NCBI GenBank assembly: GCA_949283075.1
Contig: CASDRH010000038.1
Coordinates: 44,483 to 108,482 of the forward strand
Reading direction: 5' to 3'
Length of the DNA: 64,000 nucleotides
Source: an uncultured Pseudomonadota bacterium
Lineage (GTDB): Bacteria; Pseudomonadota; Alphaproteobacteria; Rs-D84; CASDRH01
The translations under genes and the position numbers were made by a program. Below are positions 1 through 35,417 of this stretch, piece after piece (the first letter of the stretch is position 1; each line of letters opens with the position of its first letter). The notes beneath the pieces were generated by a model. The model worked only from the letters and a program-made list of their open reading frames with translations, was not told the origin of the DNA and did not search any database.

Positions 1-782
1 TAAATATAACTACATATAACTTGTGTCGTATAAATATGTTTCTTCATGATATTAATTATAATAAATTTGATATCGCACTTGGAGATACATTGACAAATCC
101 GAAGCATTGGGATGATGAGCCTTTTGATGCTATAGTTTCAAATCCTCCGTATTCAATAAAGTGGGACGGAGATTCGAATCCTTTGTTAATAAATGACCCG
201 CGTTTTTCGCAAGCTGGTATTTTAGCTCCACGTAGTAAGGCAGACTTAGCATTTACGATGCATATATTGTCTTGGTTATCTGAATCAGGTACAGCAGCAA
301 TAGTTGAATTTCCAGGAGTATTATATCGTGGTGGAGCAGAACAAAAGATTCGTAAATATTTGATAGAAAATAATTTTATAGATACGGTAATACAATTACC
401 ACAAAATCTTTTCTTTGGAGTTAGTATTGCGACATGTATTATTGTATTAAAGAAATCTGCAAAGAAAGATAACAACATATTGTTTATAGATGGAAGTAAA
501 GAATTTATTCATTCTGGTAATAAAAATAAGTTATCAAACGATAATATTGACAAAATATTAGAAACTTATAGGAATAGATTACCAATAGAACATTTTGCTA
601 GCTTAATTCCGAATTCAAAAGTTATTGAAAATGATTGTAATTTATCAGTATCTTCATATGTAGAATCAAAAAATACAGAAGAAGAAATAGATATAAATAA
701 ATTGAACTTAGAAATTGCAGAAATTGTAAAAAGGCAATCAAAATTACGTGAGCAAATTGATGCTATAGTTGCAGAATTATAA
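1..782 (+). CDS. hsdM: Type I restriction-modification DNA methyltransferase subunit M; only the C-terminal part is in the window and the 5' end is truncated by the window edge
   Basis: The reading frame is open to position 1. An N6-adenine methyltransferase motif, SNPPYSIKW (NPPY), is present. The gene overlaps the start of the downstream specificity-subunit gene. Confidence 0.85.
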   Translation, partial: NITTYNLCRINMFLHDINYNKFDIALGDTLTNPKHWDDEPFDAIVSNPPYSIKWDGDSNPLLINDPRFSQAGILAPRSKADLAFTMHILSWLSESGTAAIVEFPGVLYRGGAEQKIRKYLIENNFIDTVIQLPQNLFFGVSIATCIIVLKKSAKKDNNILFIDGSKEFIHSGNKNKLSNDNIDKILETYRNRLPIEHFASLIPNSKVIENDCNLSVSSYVESKNTEEEIDINKLNLEIAEIVKRQSKLREQIDAIVAEL

Positions 783-801
783 AAAAGTAAGGATTAGTTT
801 T

Positions 802-1926
802 ATGTCCAAAATTGAAGAATTGATATCAAAATATTGCCCGAATGGTGTTGAGTATAAAGAATTAGGAATGGTATTAGATTATGAACAGCCATCTAAATAT
901 CTTGTTAATTCATCATATTATTGTAATGATGAAAATTTGATACCTGTTCTTACTGCTGGTCAAACTTTTATATTGGGATATACTGATGAAAAATATGGTA
1001 TATATAATGCAAGTAAAGATAATCCTGTAATAATATTTGATGATTTTACAACAGCATCACGTTGGATTGATTTTAATTTTAAAATTAAGTCATCTGCAAT
1101 AAAGTTGCTCACTCCGAAAATAGAATGTGTTTTTAAATATGTTTATTATGCTATGATGGAAATAAAAATTAATAATTTAGAACATTCTAGACAATGGATA
1201 TCTAAATATTCTAAAATTTTAATCCCACTGCCACCAATACCGGTTCAAGAAGAGATTGTTAAAATACTGGATTCTTTTACAGAACTAGAAGCAGAACTAG
1301 AAGCAGAACTAGAAGCAAGAAAAAAACAGTATGAGTATTATAAAAAACAATTATTATCTTTTAATAATGAATATAAAAATTTAAATCATATAAAATATAT
1401 GCCTATTATAGATTTAGCTCCAGTGTATAGAGGTAAACGACTTACAAAATCAGAATTAACTGCAGAGGGAAATTATCCTGTATATCACGGTGGTATTGAA
1501 CCATTAGGATATTATTATTCTAAAAATCGTGATGCTCATACTGTTATGATTATTAATGTAGGAGCATCTGCTGGAACAGTTGGATATAGTGATACTGATT
1601 TTTGGTCATCAGATGGTTGTTTTTGTATAGGTAAATCAGATCTGTTTATACCAAAATACTTATATTATGTTTTATCTTTGAAAGAAAAAGAATTTCGTTC
1701 TAAGGTTAGAAAAGCTGGTATTCCAACATTAGATAATTCTGTTGTTGAGAAAATTGTTGTTCCAATTCCTCCACTTGCTGAACAAGAACGGATTGTTGCA
1801 ATACTTGATAAATTTGATGCTCTGGTTAATGATATTTCTGTTGGATTACCTGCTGAAATTAATGCTCGTCGTAAGCAATATGAATATTGGCGGAATAAAT
1901 TATTAGACTTCAAAAAGGCTGAATGA
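802..1926 (+). CDS. hsdS: Type I R-M specificity subunit S with two target-recognition domains
   Basis: A conserved central repeat region (ELEAELEAELEARKKQYEYYKKQLL) and a C-terminal repeat region (INARRKQYEYWRNKLL) are typical of HsdS. An AAGGA SD precedes the ATG at 802. The gene sits between hsdM and hsdR. Confidence 0.8.
   Translation: MSKIEELISKYCPNGVEYKELGMVLDYEQPSKYLVNSSYYCNDENLIPVLTAGQTFILGYTDEKYGIYNASKDNPVIIFDDFTTASRWIDFNFKIKSSAIKLLTPKIECVFKYVYYAMMEIKINNLEHSRQWISKYSKILIPLPPIPVQEEIVKILDSFTELEAELEAELEARKKQYEYYKKQLLSFNNEYKNLNHIKYMPIIDLAPVYRGKRLTKSELTAEGNYPVYHGGIEPLGYYYSKNRDAHTVMIINVGASAGTVGYSDTDFWSSDGCFCIGKSDLFIPKYLYYVLSLKEKEFRSKVRKAGIPTLDNSVVEKIVVPIPPLAEQERIVAILDKFDALVNDISVGLPAEINARRKQYEYWRNKLLDFKKAE
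1282..1317 (+). repeat. Three perfect tandem copies of a 12-bp unit (GAACTAGAAGCA) encoding (ELEA)x3, in the central conserved region of hsdS
   Basis: Read directly from the sequence. The unit is in frame and perfect in all three copies. Confidence 0.9.
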
Positions 1927-3053
1927 TGGAAAAAAATTTTGAAACAATACAAGATCTTTTCAACTATGTTAAAAAAGATTTTGATGATTCAAATAGAAAA
2001 AATAAAGTTGCTTTAAGACTTATGTTTGCATCTAACACCTCTGGAAAAACGCGTTTGTCGGAGGCTTTTAGAGAAGAAGATAAACAAAATCTTGTAGAAG
2101 ATGATTCTTTAAGTAAGGTTTTATGTTATAACTCTTTCTTTGAAGATTATTTTCACTGGGATAATGAAAAATTTGTATTGAAGCTAGATAAATATTCTTG
2201 GATATCAAAATTTATAGAAGATGAGGGATTAGATGCTCAAATTATTGATAATTTCAAAAATATTACTAATTCTAAATTTAATATAGAATTTAATCAAGAC
2301 GGTGTTTGTTTTGGATATTATCTAGATGGTTATAACGAATTATCTACGATAAAAATTTCAAGAGCAGAAGAAAGTCAATTTATTTGGTGTGTCTTCTATA
2401 CAATTTTAAAAAGGGTAATAGAGTTATTATCAGAAAATAAGGAAAGCCGTTCAACAAATCTGTTTAATGAACTTAAATATATTATTATTGATGATCCAGT
2501 ATCTTCAATGGATGATAATAGGATAATAACACTCGCATTAGATTTAATACAATTAATTAAACAAATAAATATAAATAAACTTAATATATTGATAACAACT
2601 CATCATTGCTTGTTTTACAATATTTTGCATAGTAACTCTATTAAAGAATTTAGTATTAAGAGATCTGTATTAAAGAAAAAAGAAGATAATACACTATCTC
2701 TTGATATTCAAAATAAAGATTCTCCTTTTGCATATCATCTTATCTTATTGGAGGAAATAAAAAAAGCCGTTGATAGTGATAATATAAAAAAATATCATTG
2801 TAACTTTTTAAGAAGTATTTTAGAAAAAACTGCTAATTTTTTTGGATATAATGGTTGGCAGGATTTATTGCATGATAATGCTCTTCAGCATGAGTATATT
2901 GCAAAGCTGTTAAATAGTTATAGTCATAATAGTTTGGCAGAAATAGAATATAGTTCTTTGGAGTTATCTGAAAAAGAGATTTTTAAGAGAGAATTTAATA
3001 ATTTTTTTGAAAAGTTTCACTGGAAGGTTAAGGAGTCTAATGATAAAAATTGA
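1923..3053 (+). CDS. PrrC-like anticodon-nuclease candidate: an ABC-ATPase-like N-domain plus a C-terminal R-x3-E...H nuclease-like motif
   Basis: The N-terminal region has a Walker A-like ASNTSGKT and a Walker B/D-loop IIIDDPVSSMDD. The C-terminal region has LRSILE (R-x3-E) followed about 38 residues later by SYSHNS, resembling the PrrC catalytic R/E/H arrangement. The gene is inserted between hsdS and hsdR, as in the E. coli prr locus. Confidence 0.45.
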   Translation: MMEKNFETIQDLFNYVKKDFDDSNRKNKVALRLMFASNTSGKTRLSEAFREEDKQNLVEDDSLSKVLCYNSFFEDYFHWDNEKFVLKLDKYSWISKFIEDEGLDAQIIDNFKNITNSKFNIEFNQDGVCFGYYLDGYNELSTIKISRAEESQFIWCVFYTILKRVIELLSENKESRSTNLFNELKYIIIDDPVSSMDDNRIITLALDLIQLIKQININKLNILITTHHCLFYNILHSNSIKEFSIKRSVLKKKEDNTLSLDIQNKDSPFAYHLILLEEIKKAVDSDNIKKYHCNFLRSILEKTANFFGYNGWQDLLHDNALQHEYIAKLLNSYSHNSLAEIEYSSLELSEKEIFKREFNNFFEKFHWKVKESNDKN

Positions 3054-6000
3054 TAATATTTCTCAAAATACAAATAGTACTGTTGTAGCAGAATATAAAA
3101 ATGATGGTATTCGCTCAACTAATTATCAATCTGAAGCAGAATTGGAAAAAGAATTTATAAAGTTATTGCAATCGCAATCATATGAATATGTTCATATAAA
3201 AAGTAATGATGATTTAGTTAATAATCTAAGAGCTAAATTATCAGAACTTAATAATTACGAGTTTTCTAATTCTGAATGGAACAAGTTTTTTAATGATAAA
3301 ATTGCTAATAAAAACAATGGAATAGAAGAAAAAACTTCTCTTATCCAAGAAGATTTTATTCAGAATTTGGAAAGAGATAATGGCGAGATAAAAAATATTT
3401 ATTTAATTGATAAAGGAAATATACATAATAATAAATTACAGGTTATCAACCAATATGAAACAGACAATGGACAACGAAAAAATAGGTATGATGTAACTAT
3501 TTTAGTTAATGGTATACCTTTGGTACATATAGAATTAAAACGTCGTGGTGTTGATATAAAAGAAGCTTTTAATCAGATAAATAGATATAACCGTGAAAGT
3601 TTTTGGGCTGATAGTGGTTTGTTTGAATATGTGCAATTATTTGTTATTAGTAATGGAACTTATACAAAATATTACAGCAATACAACAAGAAACCAACATA
3701 TAAAGGAAGCGAAAAATAAAGCTTCTGTAAATATTAAAAAGACAAGTAATAGTTTTGAATTTACTTCTTGGTGGTCTGATGAGAAAAATAAACCTATAAC
3801 TGATTTGATGGATTTTACTAAAACTTTCTTTTCTAAGCATACTTTATTAAGTATTTTGACAAAGTATTGTGTTTTTACTGTTGATAAATTGTTATTAGTA
3901 ATGCGTCCTTATCAAATTGTTGCTACTGAAAAAATTATAAATAAAGTCCAAATTTCACATAATTATAAAAAATATGGTTCTATTGAAGCTGGTGGATATG
4001 TATGGCATACTACTGGTTCTGGTAAGACTTTGACAAGTTTTAAAACGTCGCAATTGGTTGCAAATTTTCCATTTATAAAAAAAGTAATGTTTGTTGTGGA
4101 TCGTAAGGATTTAGATTATCAAACTATGAAAGAATATGATAAATTTGAACAGGGGGCTGCTAATAGTAATACAAATACTGCTATTTTAAAACGTCAGTTA
4201 GAAGATACAAATGTAAAGATAATAATTACTACAATTCAGAAGCTTCATAGATTTATCAATAACAATGGAGATCATAAAATATTTAATGATGAAATTGTTT
4301 TTATTTTTGATGAATGTCATAGATCTCAATTTGGAGATATGCATAAAGCGATTACAAAAAGATTTAAAAAGTATTATTTATTTGGGTTTACAGGAACTCC
4401 TATATTTGCGAAGAATGCTTCTTCAGGAGGTGATATTAAACTAAAAACTACACAGCAAGCTTTTGGAAAGCAGTTGCATACTTATACAATTATTAATGCA
4501 ATTAGAGACAAAAATGTATTACCTTTTAAAGTTGATTATATTTCTACTTTGAGAGAGGCTGAAAATATATCAGATGAAAAAATATCTGATATTAATCGAG
4601 AAAAAATATTGATGGATCCAAAAAGAATTCATAATATTACTGGATATATTTTAGAACATTTTGATCAAAAAACAAAGCGTTCAGATAAAGCATATAATTT
4701 TAGTAAAGTAGATAATATAAAAGAAGTTGTTATTTCAAAAAATAAAGTAAAAGAATCAAAAAAACATGTCTATTTACTCGGTTTTAATTCTTTGTTTTGT
4801 GTTGCTAATATAGATATGGCAAAAGCTTATTATACTGAATTTAAAAAGCAAATGGAGCAATTACCACCTATTAATAGATTAAAAGTAGCTCTTATATACA
4901 GTTTTGGAGTAAATGAAGAAAACGGAATTATAGATGAAAATTCTGAAACAACAGAGGGGTTAGATCAATCTTCACGTGATTTTTTAGAAATTGCTATAAA
5001 GGATTATAATAAAATGTTTAATACAAATTATGATACATCCGCTGATAAATTTCAGAATTATTACAAAGATGTTTCTCTTAGGATGAAGAATAGAGAGATT
5101 GATTTATTAATAGTTGTTAATATGTTTTTGACAGGATTTGATGCTACTACATTAAATACATTATGGGTTGATAAATCGTTGCGTATGCATGGACTATTGC
5201 AAGCATTTTCACGTACAAATAGAATATTAAATTCAGTTAAAACTTATGGAAATATTGTTTGCTTTAGAAATCTTGAAAATATGACAAATGAAGCTTTAGC
5301 TTTATTTGGTGATGAAAATGCTGCTGGAGTTGTTTTATTAAAAACATTTAAAGAGTATTATTCAGATGGTTATAAAGATAAAAATGGGAAATATGTTCCA
5401 AGTTATATAGAGCTTATTCAACAATTACATGAAAAATTTCCAGCAGGAATTGTTATTGAAAGTGAAGAATGTAAAAAAGAATTTATTAAACTTTATAGTG
5501 TGATATTGAAATTAAAGAATATCTTAACTTCATTTGATGAATTTCAAGGAAATGAGATATTGTCTGATAGAGATTATCAAGATTATCACAGTATGTATAT
5601 AGAGCTTTATAATGAATATCGTAATTCAGTAGATAAGGAAAAAGAGGTAGTAAATGATGATATTGTTTTTGAAATGGAACTTATAAAGCAGATAAATATA
5701 AATATTGATTATATATTATCACTTATAAAAAAATATCATAGCTCTCATATGGAAGATAAAGAAATTTTAGTAAGTATATCTAAAGCAATTGATGCAAGTA
5801 TTGAATTACGAAATAAAAAAGATTTAATAATGGCATTTGTAGAAACAATTAATGCAAAAACTGATATAGAACAAGATTGGATTAGTTTTATATCAGAAAA
5901 TCGACAGAAAGAGTTAGATGAGATAATAGAAGATGAGAATTTAAATAAAGAACAAACATATAATTTTATGAAAAATGCTTTTTATAATGGTAATTTGTCA

Positions 6001-6150
6001 ACTGATGGTACAGAGATTGCTGATTTATTACCACCAGTATCTATTTTTGCTGATTCAGATGATAATATAACTGTAAAATTAAAAACTGTTATAAATAAGT
6101 TATTAAATTTCTTTGATAGATTCTTTAATATATCAGATAAAAATTTTTAA
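3040..6150 (+). CDS. hsdR: Type I restriction enzyme R subunit, an SF2 helicase-nuclease
   Basis: A Walker A-like TGSGKT (WHTTGSGKTLTSF) and a DECH box (FIFDECHRSQFG) are present. The length is about 1040 aa. An AAGGAG SD lies 8 nt upstream of the ATG at 3040. The longer ORF from 3007 overlaps the upstream gene. Confidence 0.9.
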   Translation: MIKIDNISQNTNSTVVAEYKNDGIRSTNYQSEAELEKEFIKLLQSQSYEYVHIKSNDDLVNNLRAKLSELNNYEFSNSEWNKFFNDKIANKNNGIEEKTSLIQEDFIQNLERDNGEIKNIYLIDKGNIHNNKLQVINQYETDNGQRKNRYDVTILVNGIPLVHIELKRRGVDIKEAFNQINRYNRESFWADSGLFEYVQLFVISNGTYTKYYSNTTRNQHIKEAKNKASVNIKKTSNSFEFTSWWSDEKNKPITDLMDFTKTFFSKHTLLSILTKYCVFTVDKLLLVMRPYQIVATEKIINKVQISHNYKKYGSIEAGGYVWHTTGSGKTLTSFKTSQLVANFPFIKKVMFVVDRKDLDYQTMKEYDKFEQGAANSNTNTAILKRQLEDTNVKIIITTIQKLHRFINNNGDHKIFNDEIVFIFDECHRSQFGDMHKAITKRFKKYYLFGFTGTPIFAKNASSGGDIKLKTTQQAFGKQLHTYTIINAIRDKNVLPFKVDYISTLREAENISDEKISDINREKILMDPKRIHNITGYILEHFDQKTKRSDKAYNFSKVDNIKEVVISKNKVKESKKHVYLLGFNSLFCVANIDMAKAYYTEFKKQMEQLPPINRLKVALIYSFGVNEENGIIDENSETTEGLDQSSRDFLEIAIKDYNKMFNTNYDTSADKFQNYYKDVSLRMKNREIDLLIVVNMFLTGFDATTLNTLWVDKSLRMHGLLQAFSRTNRILNSVKTYGNIVCFRNLENMTNEALALFGDENAAGVVLLKTFKEYYSDGYKDKNGKYVPSYIELIQQLHEKFPAGIVIESEECKKEFIKLYSVILKLKNILTSFDEFQGNEILSDRDYQDYHSMYIELYNEYRNSVDKEKEVVNDDIVFEMELIKQININIDYILSLIKKYHSSHMEDKEILVSISKAIDASIELRNKKDLIMAFVETINAKTDIEQDWISFISENRQKELDEIIEDENLNKEQTYNFMKNAFYNGNLSTDGTEIADLLPPVSIFADSDDNITVKLKTVINKLLNFFDRFFNISDKNF

Positions 6151-6191: not shown

Positions 6192-7310
6192 ATGAATGAA
6201 ATTAAAGAACCAAATATATTTAAATATGCAACATCTGAATTATCACAAGACGCTTTTTTATGTTGGTTAATAGAAAATGCAAAAAATGAGTATAAAGAAA
6301 CAGAATTGCATAAATTTGCAAAATTGTTTGTGTCAGAATTATTAGATAATAAAATATCAGAGTTTGAAATAAAAAATATTGAAAAGCAAGATAAAAAAAT
6401 TGATGTGTTTATTGATTTAGAAGATGATAAAGGTAATAAAATAGGAGTAATTATTGAAGATAAGACATCATCATATCTTCACGATGATCAAATATTGAGG
6501 TATGTAGAAAATAAAAAAAAGGAAGATTATAATAAAATATATGTTGTATATTTCAAATCAAGATTTATGTCAAAACAAGAAGAAAAAGATTTGGATAAAT
6601 ACAATGAAGAAAGAAATAAAGATAATTCTAATTATATATTTAATATTTTTAATAATGACAAAATTAATATATTTTTTAATGAAAATGGAAAAGGAATACA
6701 TTATTTATTAGATCAATGGATTTATAATTTTGATCAAAATTATAAAGAAATACAAAATACTATTGAGTATATAAAGAATAATAAATATGACTTTCATGAT
6801 AATTCTCAAAGAAAAGTGTTTTTAGATTATAGAGAAGTTTTTTTAGACTATATAGTTTCTGAAATTCAAAATGATGAAGAATTAAAAACAAAATATAAAG
6901 ATATACGGTGGTATATAACAGATCAAGCAAGGACTCCTCATATAGAAATATATACAAAAAATAAAGATATAAGACAGTATAAGATAGGAACAACTTTATA
7001 TATTATGTTTGATAAAAATGCTTATAATTTATCTATTAAACAACATATATTTACTAAAGATTACAAACGTATTAATGTAAGAAATAATGGATATAAAAAT
7101 GTTCCTTCAAAAGTTATAGAAGAAAAAGAAAAAATTGCTTTAAAGCTATCAAATGTTTGTGAATGGGATGAGCAAAATGATACTAATAAAAGATTAGTTA
7201 TATTTAAAAAAACTTTAAATCAAGAAATAAACGCTAATAATATAATTAACAGTTTAAAAGAAAATAAAGATATTGATAATATTATTCATACACTTGAAAG
7301 TATAGAGTGA
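6192..7310 (+). CDS. Lys-rich hypothetical protein with a PD-(D/E)xK nuclease-like motif
   Basis: The motif DVFIDLEDDKGNKIGVIIEDK (D...IIEDK) matches a PD-(D/E)xK core. The gene sits immediately after hsdR, next to the KAP NTPase. Confidence 0.3.
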   Translation: MNEIKEPNIFKYATSELSQDAFLCWLIENAKNEYKETELHKFAKLFVSELLDNKISEFEIKNIEKQDKKIDVFIDLEDDKGNKIGVIIEDKTSSYLHDDQILRYVENKKKEDYNKIYVVYFKSRFMSKQEEKDLDKYNEERNKDNSNYIFNIFNNDKINIFFNENGKGIHYLLDQWIYNFDQNYKEIQNTIEYIKNNKYDFHDNSQRKVFLDYREVFLDYIVSEIQNDEELKTKYKDIRWYITDQARTPHIEIYTKNKDIRQYKIGTTLYIMFDKNAYNLSIKQHIFTKDYKRINVRNNGYKNVPSKVIEEKEKIALKLSNVCEWDEQNDTNKRLVIFKKTLNQEINANNIINSLKENKDIDNIIHTLESIE

Positions 7311-7393: not shown

Positions 7394-9724
7394 ATGAATT
7401 TTATTAAAAAATATTTAAACAAACCATTGTTATGTATAATTAGATTTATTAATCATATTGATAGTATTTATTTTAAAAATTACTATGTAAATCCTGATGA
7501 TATTTACCATATTATTAACAATAATTTAAATAATGAAGATATTTCATATAATGAACAATTAAAAGAATATATTTTAGTTAAATTAATTATCTTATTTAAA
7601 AGTACAATTAAAGTTTCATGTATAGTTGGACTTACTATTTTGATTTTGGGATTATTTAATCTTGTAAATTCTTATTCTTTTATATTTTTATTTGCTATAC
7701 TAATTATAGCCTTATACTGTTTTATTAAATATTTAAAATCTAAGTTAGATATATCTTTTAATAAATCAAAATGTTTTATGATAGAAGGACCATGGGGTAT
7801 AGGTAAAACATATACATTTAATACTAGAATAAAACCGGAATTAGCAAAACTTTTTAAAAATATATATTATGTATCTTTGTCTGGTTTGAAAACTCAAGAT
7901 GAAATCAGAGCTAAAATAATAAGTAAATATAAGATATTCAAAAACTATCACTTCATATTTTTCATATTAGGAGTGTCTTTTTTTATACTTTGGCTTTTTG
8001 CTTTTGTTAATACTAAAGATAGTTTAGCTTTATATAATCAATGTGATAATTGTTTAATTATATCTTTTAATTATTTTCCTAATTTTATATCTAATAAGAT
8101 AATAGAGTTATGGCCGTATATTGGAACTCTTATAAAAACACAATATTTAGAAAATATTATTCAAATAGTTCTATGGATAACAATTGGATATTGGGTATTA
8201 TGTTTACTTGGTTATAAATTTCTTATAAGTTTTATATCAAGCCTATCTAAAAAACACTTCGGTTTTGATATAGCTGATGAAAAATTAGATTTAACATTTA
8301 TAAATAATAAAGATACATTACTTGTATTTGATGATTTAGAAAGAGTTGCCGAAGATACAGATATAAAAAGCATACTAGGCTTTATTGGTAATTTAAAAGA
8401 GGTATATGGATTTAATATTATTTTAATCTGCAATGAAGAAGAGCTTAAAAAAGTATACGAAAGAGATAACTATCAAGTTGAGTTTATAAGTAAAAAAATA
8501 GATGGGCAAGAGGTGCAAATTCCTAAATATGATAAAAATAAGGATGTTAATAATAATTATAAAAGATATAAAGAAAAATTTGTTGATAAGACTTTATATA
8601 AAACTTTGGAATTTAGATTAAAAGTAAAAATATTTAAAGATAAATTTGATGAATATGGTGGGATTTTAATTCTAAAATTTGTAAAAAATATAGAGAATAC
8701 TATAATTTATTCATATGATAAATATGGTGAGAAAGAATATAAAGATGCATTTATAGATAAAATTAAAACAGATATTAGACTTTGGCAAAGAATTGTTGAT
8801 AATATTGATTATTTAATTCAGGAAACAAAGTTTTTTGAAAATATTATAGATGATTTAAAGTATGATAAAAATTGCAAATATTTTTATAATGAAAAAAATA
8901 ATACATATATTTTAGAAGAAGATTTAAAAGATATTGTAATATATATATTATTCTTTTCTGTTGAATATTCTTATGGATCACTTTTAGATTTTAAAGAATA
9001 TGTGATGTGTAGTTATGAATATGCTAAGTATAAAGATAATAAGAATTTAAATACCTTATATAAAGATCATAAGTACTATTTTTTATACAAAAAATTGTCT
9101 TTTATTGCTATAAATACTTCAAATATCTATATAGCAAATATGGCTTATAATTTAGTAATTGGCAAATTTGAAGATGTTAATGCAGATAAATTACTTCAAA
9201 ATAAGTCTGAAGTTTTATTAAGGTATATATTTAAACACTTAGTGTTGTCAAATATATTAGATGATAATAATAAAAAATATTTTATTAATAATTTTTCTGA
9301 AATATCAGAGTTTAGCGTGGATAATTGGGAAATAATCAAGGGATTTATACGTAATCATACATTTGATCAAAATGAAGAAGATAAATTTATAGATGAGTTT
9401 AAAAAATTAATAAAAAAATCTGATATATTTATGTTTTATAGATATTCTCCAAATTATTCTATAAATACAGATAATGAGTTTTTAAATAGAGTTTATAATA
9501 TTTGTTTAGAATATCTAAATAAAAATAGATTAATTAAAACAAAGGAATATTTTGATTCTTTATCTGAGACAAAAACAATAATTAAAAATGATATTATAGA
9601 TTTATTATTTTCTGAAGAATTTAAAACAGATGCTGAAGATTATGTAAAAAAATATCCTATAACTAATAAACAAATAATAGATTATTTAAAAAGTAATGAT
9701 GTTTTTAGGCATTTAAAGTCATAG
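7394..9724 (+). CDS. KAP-family P-loop NTPase with transmembrane segments inserted in the NTPase domain
   Basis: Walker A is EGPWGIGKTYTF. Walker B is LLVFDDLERV (the KAP hhhhDDLDR type). Hydrophobic helices lie before the Walker A motif and again between Walker A and Walker B. Confidence 0.65.
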   Translation: MNFIKKYLNKPLLCIIRFINHIDSIYFKNYYVNPDDIYHIINNNLNNEDISYNEQLKEYILVKLIILFKSTIKVSCIVGLTILILGLFNLVNSYSFIFLFAILIIALYCFIKYLKSKLDISFNKSKCFMIEGPWGIGKTYTFNTRIKPELAKLFKNIYYVSLSGLKTQDEIRAKIISKYKIFKNYHFIFFILGVSFFILWLFAFVNTKDSLALYNQCDNCLIISFNYFPNFISNKIIELWPYIGTLIKTQYLENIIQIVLWITIGYWVLCLLGYKFLISFISSLSKKHFGFDIADEKLDLTFINNKDTLLVFDDLERVAEDTDIKSILGFIGNLKEVYGFNIILICNEEELKKVYERDNYQVEFISKKIDGQEVQIPKYDKNKDVNNNYKRYKEKFVDKTLYKTLEFRLKVKIFKDKFDEYGGILILKFVKNIENTIIYSYDKYGEKEYKDAFIDKIKTDIRLWQRIVDNIDYLIQETKFFENIIDDLKYDKNCKYFYNEKNNTYILEEDLKDIVIYILFFSVEYSYGSLLDFKEYVMCSYEYAKYKDNKNLNTLYKDHKYYFLYKKLSFIAINTSNIYIANMAYNLVIGKFEDVNADKLLQNKSEVLLRYIFKHLVLSNILDDNNKKYFINNFSEISEFSVDNWEIIKGFIRNHTFDQNEEDKFIDEFKKLIKKSDIFMFYRYSPNYSINTDNEFLNRVYNICLEYLNKNRLIKTKEYFDSLSETKTIIKNDIIDLLFSEEFKTDAEDYVKKYPITNKQIIDYLKSNDVFRHLKS

Positions 9725-9868
9725 TTTTATGTTTGAATATAATTGTAAAGGGAATTACAGATTTAGATATAAAATAAGATTTAAAAAATTTTTTGAGAAA
9801 GAATAAAGATAAAATTTAATAAAGTTGTTATAAAAATATATTTTTTTATACTTTTGTAAAATTTATGA

Positions 9869-10105
9869 TTGTCTTTTACTCTTATAAGTTTTGTAGCTTA
9901 TAATTCATTTGCTTTTGATGAATTAGGAAATGAAGTTATAGATAAAAGAGTTGTAAAAGAATTAGATGGTATTGGAGAAAAATCTGATATCAATAAACAA
10001 GATAATGTAAAGGCTGAAAATTCTGTTAAAATATCTTCTTCTGAAAATAGAGATGATAAATTACAGCAGACTAAATATGATGAACAATTAAAAGAATATA
10101 AATAA
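9869..10105 (+). CDS. Small hypothetical protein, acidic and lysine-rich
   Basis: ORF only; no recognisable motif. Confidence 0.2.
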   Translation: MSFTLISFVAYNSFAFDELGNEVIDKRVVKELDGIGEKSDINKQDNVKAENSVKISSSENRDDKLQQTKYDEQLKEYK

Positions 10106-17942: not shown

Positions 17943-18110
17943 GGGGAGCTTAGGCTCCCTTTTACGTGATATGATTCCTTCTTTATATTATTCTCATACA
18001 AATTTTTAGGGGAGCTTAGGCTCCCTTTTACGTGATATGATTCCGCATGAATATTCTAATGTTTCGAATTGTTCGGGGAGCTTAGGCTCCCTTTTATGTG
18101 ATATGATTCC
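17943..18110 (+). CRISPR. Mini CRISPR array of three 36-nt direct repeats and two 30-nt spacers
   Basis: The repeat is GGGGAGCTTAGGCTCCCTTTTACGTGATATGATTCC at 17943-17978, 18009-18044 and 18075-18110. The last copy has one C-to-T change. Spacers lie at 17979-18008 and 18045-18074, are unique, and are both exactly 30 nt. The repeat contains the palindrome GGGAGC-TTAG-GCTCCC. The period is 66 nt. Confidence 0.7.
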
Positions 18111-34441: not shown

Positions 34442-34670
34442 TTTTTATTGTTATTTATGTTTTTTGTAAAGTATTATTTGATATTTATTTTTGCTTATAT
34501 TTTTTATTTATTTTTTGATTTGTTTTGTCAATTCTTTTTGTCAAAAAATGCTTGCGGTGATTTTTAATTTTTTGTATAATTCGTCTTATCTGGTTTTTAC
34601 TCAGAATTGTTAAAAGGAATTTTCCATAACATTTTTTGCGTTGGAAAGGGAATATAAAAAGGAAGGAAAA

Positions 34671-35417
34671 ATGAAAAAAGAAAATAATAAAAACTTATCT
34701 AAAAATAATAATGTAACAAATAAGGCTCAGGTTGCTTATTTCTTGTGGTTAGAAAAAGGTTGTCCAGAGAGTATGGAAGAAGCTGTTTATATGTCAGTTG
34801 CTGATCGTCAATGTCCAGCTGGCGTTGATAAAGCAATATGGGATAACGCAAAAGCTAGATTAGCAAAACGTGTTTATGAAATAGCTAATATTAAAAAAGC
34901 TGTTGCTAATGAAGATAAAGTTGAAACTTTGAAATCTGATGTTTCAGTTGATAAAAAAGCAGAAGTTAAGAAACCAGAAGCAAAGAAAGTTGTAAAAGCT
35001 GTTAAAAAAGCAAAAGCAGTTGCTAAAAAGGTTGAAAAGAAAGTTGAAGCTAAAAAAGCTGAAATTAAAGCTGTTGTAAAAGCAGAAGTTAAGAAACCAG
35101 AAGCAAAGAAAGTTGTAAAAGCTGTTAAAAAAGCAAAAGCAGTTGCTAAAAAGGTTGAAAAGAAAGTTGAAGCTAAAAAAGCTGAAGTAAAGAAGATTGC
35201 TGAAAAAGCTAAAGCTCCAGTTATTTCTATTGTTAAAAAAGAAGAAGTAAAAAAAGCTGTTAAATCTGTTAAAGCTAAATCCTCTTCATCTAAACCAGCG
35301 AAGAAAATCGTTAATAAGGTGAAGAAAAATGATCCGCTTACAGAAGCTTTGAATAAAGCAGAAAGCAAAATTGTTTCTATTACAAATCATAATTTGAAGA
35401 AAGTTGTAAATAAATAA
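34671..35417 (+). CDS. Histone H1-like Lys/Ala-rich repeat protein
   Basis: An AAGGAAGG SD precedes the ATG at 34671. The C-terminal two thirds is AKKVEKKVEAKKAE-type repeats. Confidence 0.55.
   Translation: MKKENNKNLSKNNNVTNKAQVAYFLWLEKGCPESMEEAVYMSVADRQCPAGVDKAIWDNAKARLAKRVYEIANIKKAVANEDKVETLKSDVSVDKKAEVKKPEAKKVVKAVKKAKAVAKKVEKKVEAKKAEIKAVVKAEVKKPEAKKVVKAVKKAKAVAKKVEKKVEAKKAEVKKIAEKAKAPVISIVKKEEVKKAVKSVKAKSSSSKPAKKIVNKVKKNDPLTEALNKAESKIVSITNHNLKKVVNK
34959..35204 (+). repeat. Perfect tandem duplication with a 123-nt (41-aa) period, of which about 105 nt are identical, inside the histone-like gene
   Basis: gcagaagttaagaaaccagaagcaaagaaagttgtaaaagctgttaaaaaagcaaaagcagttgctaaaaaggttgaaaagaaagttgaagctaaaaaagctgaa occurs twice, at 34959 and 35082. 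Confidence 0.85.

Follow-up and report, generated by a model that had tools for sequence, protein, structure and literature searches.

The hsdS gene of a type I restriction-modification (R-M) locus, located near the start of a 64,000-nucleotide stretch of contig CASDRH010000038.1 from an uncultured pseudomonadotal bacterium (the whole of which is here termed 'the window'), contains at its center a perfect tandem array of a 12-base-pair (bp) unit. The array is probably a type IC spacer-length repeat, whose units are added or removed whole without disturbing the reading frame, each such change shifting the spacer of the recognized sequence by 1 bp. In the mechanism proposed, it corresponds to an 'ELEA/EAEL' version of the tetra-amino-acid TAEL repeat found in the HsdS subunits of EcoR124I and EcoR124II, and lies in the middle of a helix (D1) that pairs with a C-terminal counterpart (D2) to form a coiled coil keeping the two target recognition domains (TRDs) of the protein apart. 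Each unit would lengthen D1 by four residues (roughly one turn of the helix), and one unit more or less would, by analogy with those enzymes, change the non-specific spacer of the bipartite site accordingly. Unit number itself would change via slipped-strand mispairing, or via unequal crossing-over between identical units.

The feature is of a known type (a TAEL/LEAT-type repeat), and reveals no new mechanism. It adds a natural pair of two-unit and three-unit alleles, from an uncultured and AT-rich bacterium, to a short list comprising EcoR124I/EcoR124II and NgoAV; it also predicts the motif spacing to be expected (GAA-N6-...), and would mark the locus as a barrier to gene exchange at the level of strains. 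In addition, the four-residue steps across phyla, the codon-identical units and the one-unit allele pairs described below bear on a gap in the survey of variable type I systems by Atack et al., who did not count tracts in multiples of three as phase-variable and described them as unexplored (PMC7383803).

The array and the restriction system that contains it

Analysis with Tandem Repeats Finder identified positions 1280 to 1317 of the forward strand as a perfect array with a period of 12, comprising 3.2 copies with 100% matches and no indels. Within it the unit GAACTAGAAGCA is read three times without mismatch at 1282-1317, as the codons GAA, CTA, GAA and GCA at 1282-1293, 1294-1305 and 1306-1317, and the last two bases (CA) of the preceding Thr160 codon (ACA) stretch the periodicity back to 1280. 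The array is in frame with the open reading frame that starts at the ATG at 802 (itself preceded by AAGGA), and is translated as (ELEA)x3, that is ELEAELEAELEA, corresponding to residues E161 to A172 of HsdS. An earlier note on this DNA had given the same coordinates, unit, copy number, frame and placement in the central conserved region, all of which were found to be correct by Tandem Repeats Finder and by translation of the reading frame.

Such an array is not readily produced by chance. No other perfect array with at least three copies and a period of 7 to 30 is present in the window, and none arose in 200 first-order Markov simulations of it; the longest perfect period-12 run spans 38 bp, as compared to a simulated mean of 21 bp and a maximum of 27. 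Codon identity among the three units has a probability of P = 0.022 if codons are chosen independently according to the window's own usage, and all three units employ CTA, which accounts for 7.7% of the leucine codons in the window. The length of the unit (12 bp) is divisible by three, and any number of units therefore keeps the reading frame.

The surrounding genes, all on the forward strand, encode the three subunits of a type I enzyme. The first (1 to 782) is the 3' part of hsdM, consisting of its last 259 codons with the 5' end cut by the start of the window, and matches the Pfam N6_Mtase family (E 6e-79) and the NCBIfam hsdM equivalog (E 1e-112); for this C-terminal portion of 259 residues, the best solved structure is the HsdM subunit of EcoR124 (7bst_D, E 5e-90). 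The second, hsdS (802 to 1926, 374 residues), encodes an N-terminal TRD, the central helix D1, a C-terminal TRD and the C-terminal helix D2; it displays two Pfam Methylase_S matches and a PADLOC Specificity_I match (E 9e-104), as well as both conserved regions with the ILDxF...RKKQYEYY motif, and its best match in the Protein Data Bank is the HsdS subunit of EcoR124 (7bst_A, E 1e-71). The third, hsdR (3040 to 6150), encodes a motor/nuclease subunit of 1036 residues with Pfam HSDR_N, SWI2_SNF2/ResIII, T1R_D3-like and EcoR124_C domains; the last of these is family-specific (E 4e-62), and the protein matches EcoR124I HsdR (2w00) over its full length (phmmer, E 2e-250). An hsdM-hsdS-hsdR gene order is typical of type IC systems, and here a prrC gene (1926 to 3053) sits between the end of hsdS at 1926 and the start of hsdR at 3040. 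Because all three subunits match EcoR124 best, and because of the EcoR124_C domain, the embedded prrC and the fold match described next, the system is, on sequence and fold criteria, of type IC (the EcoR124 family, a group first defined through complementation between subunits of its enzymes), as the earlier note had proposed. Repeats such as TAEL, LEAT, SEAL and TSEL in the central conserved region are a hallmark of that type (PMC10030836).

The position of the array within the protein was examined using an AlphaFold2 model of HsdS, built on an alignment of 59 homologues (mean predicted local distance difference test score 87.8). When compared using Foldseek, this model superposes best on EcoR124I HsdS (7bst_A), with a TM-score of 0.80 and a root-mean-square deviation of 3.5 Å. 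In the model, the two TRDs are joined by an unbroken helix of 41 residues (D1, residues 146-186, encoded by the central conserved region at 1237 to 1359) with the repeat, residues 161-172, in its middle. The TRDs themselves correspond to residues ~15-143 (TRD1, 844 to 1230) and residues ~190-322 (TRD2, 1369 to 1767); TRD1 is related to the GAA-recognizing N-terminal TRD of EcoR124I (57% identity over 129 aligned residues), and TRD2, which is covered by a Pfam Methylase_S match to residues 199-354, is 96-99% identical at the nucleotide level to the conspecific contigs L001 and L059 introduced below. The C-terminal conserved region (1774 to 1902) is modeled as helices at residues 325-343 and 348-367, the predicted antiparallel coiled-coil partner (D2) of D1. 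In type I specificity subunits, the two conserved regions form an antiparallel coiled coil that fixes the distance between the TRDs (PMC3874165).

The central region of the window's HsdS, FTELEAELEAELEARKKQY, aligns without gaps to that of EcoR124I, FTALTAELTAELNMRKKQY, such that FT-ELEAELEAELEA-RKKQY in the former is matched, again gap-free, by FT-ALTAELTAELNM-RKKQY in the latter. In both proteins the connector from ILDxF to RKKQY is 13 residues long, and the solved EcoR124 chain (404 residues) contains two TAEL units, which identifies it with EcoR124I. EcoR124I, with two TAEL units, recognizes GAA-N6-RTCG, and EcoR124II, with three, recognizes GAA-N7-RTCG, a change that originates in unequal crossing-over within the 12-bp repeat (PMC3874165). 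Because the length of the connector matches that of EcoR124I (two TAEL units plus degenerate flanks), three ELEA units appear to be equivalent to the N6 state of EcoR124I, rather than to the three-TAEL, N7 state of EcoR124II. The parallel with EcoR124I/II drawn in the earlier note is upheld for polymorphism in unit number, and needs a small correction in the mapping of its three copies, which by length answer to EcoR124I. Given the 13-residue connector, and a TRD1 that is 57% identical to a GAA-binding domain, the window's enzyme probably recognizes GAA-N6-(TRD2 half-site); by the same analogy, a two-unit allele would recognize a site with an N5 spacer.

Variation in unit number within the species and across the family

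The database protein closest to HsdS (P0012) led to three contigs (L001, L002 and L003), and an exact look-up of a conserved 211-residue gene located 8 kb downstream led to two others (L059 and L060), all of which cover this same locus of the chromosome, with a nucleotide identity of 96-99.7%. The hsdS gene of L059 encodes the same TRD1 and TRD2 as the window with two units instead of three (FT-ELEA-ELEV-RKKQY, as opposed to FT-ELEAx3-RKKQY); across window positions 1 to 1933, the two sequences are separated by seven point differences (two in hsdM and five in hsdS) and a single 12-bp indel. The resulting 370-residue, two-unit allele (P0241) is identical in three independent assemblies (L073, L074 and L075), and supplies what the earlier note had advised looking for, namely a different copy number in another isolate. 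The L001-L003 contigs, which come from different samples and assemblers, carry an identical two-unit state; their central region and TRD2 are the same as those of L059, and their TRD1 is unrelated.

This last difference corresponds to a cassette exchange of TRD1 within the species (window 859-1213 versus L001 2018-2414), with flanks that are 96-99% identical and breakpoints that fall where the conserved regions border the TRD; the N-terminal TRD shared by the window and L059 is unrelated to that of L001-L003.

The window's exact HsdS, and hypothetical two-unit and four-unit versions of it, are all absent from a collection of 15 billion proteins; exact look-ups of HsdR and of a 372-residue neighbor found nothing on record, and those of PrrC and of a 776-residue neighbor returned only contigs that end before the repeat. 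A scan of Joint Genome Institute (JGI) metagenomes using a flanked repeat pattern that allowed one to five units gave no matches. The best HsdS match in a collection of species-representative genomes stands at 56%. On these results the species is absent from that collection and from the JGI metagenomes; it turns up repeatedly within a single series of assemblies from ENA and Logan.

Comparison across the family indicates that the length of D1 varies in a quantized manner. The D1 connector of the 120 best homologues takes one of three lengths (9, 13 or 17 residues), moving in four-residue steps, and the equivalent segment of D2 has a constant length of 17 residues in nearly all of them. In at least seven lineages, pairs of alleles that are 99.8-100% identical outside the masked repeat were found to stand exactly one unit apart (P0035/P0058, P0038/P0054, P0040/P0057, P0043/P0053, P0106/P0117 and P0021/P0030, as well as P0085/P0090 from Streptococcus pluranimalium).

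The same behavior is visible at the level of DNA. Of 34 arrays taken from species-representative genomes, 26 contain a perfect period-12 run measuring 24 bp or more, and 17 contain one of 36 bp or more. Units within one gene are identical even at synonymous sites, yet the choice of codons differs from gene to gene; because of this combination, codon identity within genes is read from these sequences as the mark of units that continue to be added and removed. A separate JGI metagenome scan, made for the exact 12-mer of the window in two copies, returned 55 loci, of which approximately 28 are HsdS central regions, evenly split between 13-residue and 17-residue connectors and with none of 9 residues.

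Those loci (L077-L131, from JGI and IMG/VR; for example L082, L088, L091, L086, L089 and L104) contain GAACTAGAAGCA inclusive of its rare CTA codon, and the ~28 hsdS genes that carry it as their central repeat, derived from lake, marine and other metagenomes, encode differing TRDs and include both three-unit and four-unit arrays. This distribution suggests horizontal movement of the conserved-region DNA itself, or a constraint acting on its nucleotide sequence.

Many of the strong HsdS homologues are approximately 600 residues long (573-617 residues; P0018-P0061, P0070-P0076, P0082 and others) and display three ILDxF...RxKQYEY regions, with the tetra-amino-acid repeat (two to four units) in the first connector only. 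Such proteins appear to possess three TRDs; 'extended' HsdS proteins with three TRDs are mentioned by Atack et al. (PMC7383803).

Alternative explanations and relationship to known systems

Several observations weigh against the interpretation of the array as a spacer-length repeat subject to unit gain and loss. (i) The species offers a single documented indel event, because the two-unit haplotypes share 1239G and 1316T and hence a common ancestry. (ii) Five hsdS substitutions separate the two-unit and three-unit alleles, which is not the pattern of a recent flip on an identical background. (iii) Both two-unit alleles reside in systems that look disabled and that lack prrC: the hsdM gene of L059 has a TAA codon inside the GGEFFTP motif (AGKSGG(E)FFTP), at a position occupied by glutamate in the intact hsdM of L001 (position 988), and the hsdS genes of L001-L003 have an in-frame TGA codon within TRD1 (L001 2054-2056, 'FAG*TPN'). 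Since both of these systems look disabled, the loss of a unit may have been a matter of neutral decay. (iv) The N-terminal half of hsdM lies beyond the window, and the three-unit system is therefore known to be intact for hsdS and hsdR only. (v) A change of spacer in this particular enzyme is argued by analogy. (vi) The 9-residue connector is a rare class, found in 6 of ~84 homologues, in 3 of 34 genome loci and in none of the ~28 environmental ELEA arrays.

An alternative genetic code (4 or 25), which the TGA codon in L001 hsdS had suggested, was considered and rejected: the long genes of the window have close to no internal TGA codons, and many TGG codons. Because these codon statistics correspond to the standard code, the TGA in L001-L003 is a nonsense codon.

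The alternative that fares best is that of a structural repeat with no current role in switching, in which a conserved coiled coil is simply maintained at the common 13-residue length and the two-unit allele is a by-product of decay. The coincidence of both two-unit alleles with nonsense codons and with a missing prrC, the rarity of the 9-residue class and the single indel event all speak for it. It is nonetheless unlikely, for three reasons: units are codon-identical within genes and differ between them, and one-unit allele differences occur in intact, full-length proteins, both of which point to turnover in working genes throughout the family; several other lineages have full-length proteins with a 9-residue connector (P0030, P0031, P0098, P0112 and P0117); and the NgoAV and EcoR124 enzymes are active at each unit number, with the spacer shifted.

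A second alternative goes further than the spacer-length interpretation, and holds that the array is a true contingency locus, undergoing fast and reversible slippage within a clone and so generating N5, N6 and N7 sub-populations in the manner of a phasevarion. The array is perfect at the level of DNA, alleles that are 100% identical outside the repeat and differ in unit number are common in other lineages, and the window offers no other hsdS copy and no inversion system that might supply variation, all of which speaks for this view. Three copies of a 12-mer, however, form a short tract, and one that is divisible by three cannot switch a gene ON and OFF; Atack et al. left such tracts out of their phase-variable set (PMC7383803). 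Moreover, the conspecific two-unit and three-unit alleles stand five hsdS substitutions apart, and the same two-unit allele was recovered from three independent assemblies with a mixture in none of them. A contingency locus of this kind is accordingly judged improbable.

Equally improbable is a variant of the same idea, in which an active in-frame switch cycles through N5, N6 and N7 states in populations and the rare two-unit state represents a geometric 'off' or crippled form. If this were true, strains would have fallen to two units, shed prrC, whose product would otherwise penalize cells that lose the R-M complex, and then gained nonsense mutations in hsdM or hsdS.

A copy number distorted by mis-assembly, whether of the window or of the contigs compared with it, can be set aside as hardly credible: all of the sequences are indeed metagenome assemblies or metagenome-assembled genomes, and the window's exact HsdS is missing from the protein collection searched, but a 38-bp array is well under the length of typical short metagenome reads, the two-unit state is identical within L001, L002 and L003 and within L073, L074 and L075 across different samples and assemblers, and unrelated assemblies commonly contain the same 12-mer in arrays of three or four units.

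The interpretation as a spacer-length repeat is consistent with the comparison of the window and L059, in which the same two TRDs are combined with a different number of 12-bp units (plus five hsdS substitutions), as a spacer switch would require. No shift of frame or promoter spacing, of the kind that underlies ON/OFF phase variation, was found; because the unit is a multiple of three, all unit numbers stay in frame. The proposal in the earlier note of a specificity-switching or phase-variable spacer is therefore sustained to the extent that alleles differing in unit number exist and that the family varies in four-residue steps, and falls short where it would imply an ON/OFF frameshift or fast, reversible switching within a clone. 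The dependence of the methylated motif on unit number, and the rate at which switching might occur, would follow those of EcoR124I/II and NgoAV if the analogy holds.

Of the characterized systems, EcoR124I and EcoR124II are the nearest: they provide the closest solved relatives of all three subunits and place an in-frame 12-bp unit at the same point in D1; EcoR124I in particular shares the gap-free central region, the 13-residue connector and the GAA-type TRD1, and the pair of enzymes, like the pair of alleles described here, consists of natural variants with the same TRDs that are one unit apart. They differ from the present system in their unit (TAEL rather than ELEA/EAEL), in an unrelated TRD2, in the presence of prrC here, and in the direction of the change, the conspecific variant here being one step shorter (9 residues) rather than longer. 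In addition, the EcoR124 systems are borne on E. coli plasmids, whereas the present one is chromosomal in an uncultured bacterium with a GC content of 27%.

A second point of reference is NgoAV of Neisseria gonorrhoeae, a type IC system with a LEAT/EATL repeat, in which natural strains with one LEAT unit were found by single-molecule real-time sequencing to recognize GAC-N6-TGC, and those with two units GAC-N7-TGC (PMC6789123). Natural strains carry zero to three such units, which represents the same kind of between-strain polymorphism as that observed here, and inactivation by nonsense or frameshift mutations is common among them, as in the sister strains of the present species. NgoAV differs from the window's system in the sequence of its unit and in possessing a poly-G tract, absent here, which truncates HsdS and is phase-variable in the true sense.

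The prrC gene and other features of the window

The gene between hsdS and hsdR (1926 to 3053, forward strand) encodes a 375-residue homologue of the latent anticodon nuclease PrrC, which matches the PADLOC PrrC profile over residues 15-373 (E 9e-94) and has no Pfam or NCBIfam match at the thresholds used. Motifs identified by pattern include those of an N-terminal ABC-type NTPase, namely a Walker A sequence (ASNTSGKT) and IIIDDP (with DDP at 189), as well as R296-SIL-E300-K and S-H334 toward the C-terminus. The catalytic triad of E. coli PrrC consists of Arg320, Glu324 and His356 (PMC1484252), to which the R296-x3-E300-K...S-H334 pattern appears to correspond; the spacing from glutamate to histidine is 34 residues here and 32 in E. 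coli. Judged from its sequence, the gene is a real prrC homologue, with a predicted activity of cleaving tRNA in the anticodon loop that the R-M complex would hold latent.

In EcoprrI (the prrABCD locus of E. coli CT196), prrC is similarly embedded in a type IC system that has tetra-amino-acid repeats in D1 (PMC3874165, PMC1484252). The two loci share the placement of prrC between hsdS and hsdR and the same hsdM-hsdS-prrC-hsdR order, which, together with the PADLOC match, bears out the PrrC-like gene that had been noted earlier. They differ in that EcoprrI, with three TAEL units, recognizes CCA-N7-RTGC, whereas the present system falls in the shorter, 13-residue class, and in that prrC here is found in some strains of the species and not in others.

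The gene is present in L060, L065 and L066, and absent from L001-L003 and L059, where a segment of ~67 bp (L001 3123-3189) replaces the 1.1-kb prrC segment (window 1934-3035) between hsdS and hsdR; the copy in L060 (L060/L071) stops 16 codons earlier. In each of the two haplotypes without prrC, a nonsense codon interrupts an R-M gene; in the window, which does carry prrC, hsdS and hsdR are intact. This pattern, which concerns three haplotypes only, would fit a role for PrrC in stabilizing its R-M partner.

The window as a whole is chromosomal, with a GC content of 27%, and encodes a class I aminoacyl-tRNA synthetase, ArgS, GatA/GatB, a MiaB-like enzyme, Lnt and RecF. Its GatB has one 100% match, in an NCBI/ENA record, followed by matches at 70-72% and then by many proteins labeled 'MAG: Alphaproteobacteria bacterium' at about 60% identity. 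A search of its 64 kb for a second hsdS copy, an hsdS fragment or an inversion system found none, and Rfam and tRNA scans of the window gave no matches. Directly 3' of hsdR are two forward-strand genes (6192-7310 and 7394-9724) without Pfam or NCBIfam matches. The 776-residue product encoded 3' of hsdR matches the PADLOC candidate-defense profile PDC-S49 (E 9e-18), and weakly mad8, and may represent a second defense gene of the same island; strain L001, where the protein has 764 residues, does not share the 3' part of the gene (window about 8470-9870).

Two further tandem repeats were recorded elsewhere in the window. At 17943-18110, a 66-bp unit is repeated in 2.5 copies with 85% identity and no Rfam match, each unit opening with a GC-rich palindrome (GGGGAGCTTAGGCTCCC) in a genome that is otherwise 27% GC. 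At 34955-35186, a 123-bp sequence is duplicated in tandem without mismatch (1.9 copies, 100%) inside a forward-strand open reading frame (34614-35417), in a coding region that is rich in lysine and alanine and that displays AKK/AEAKK-type repeats.

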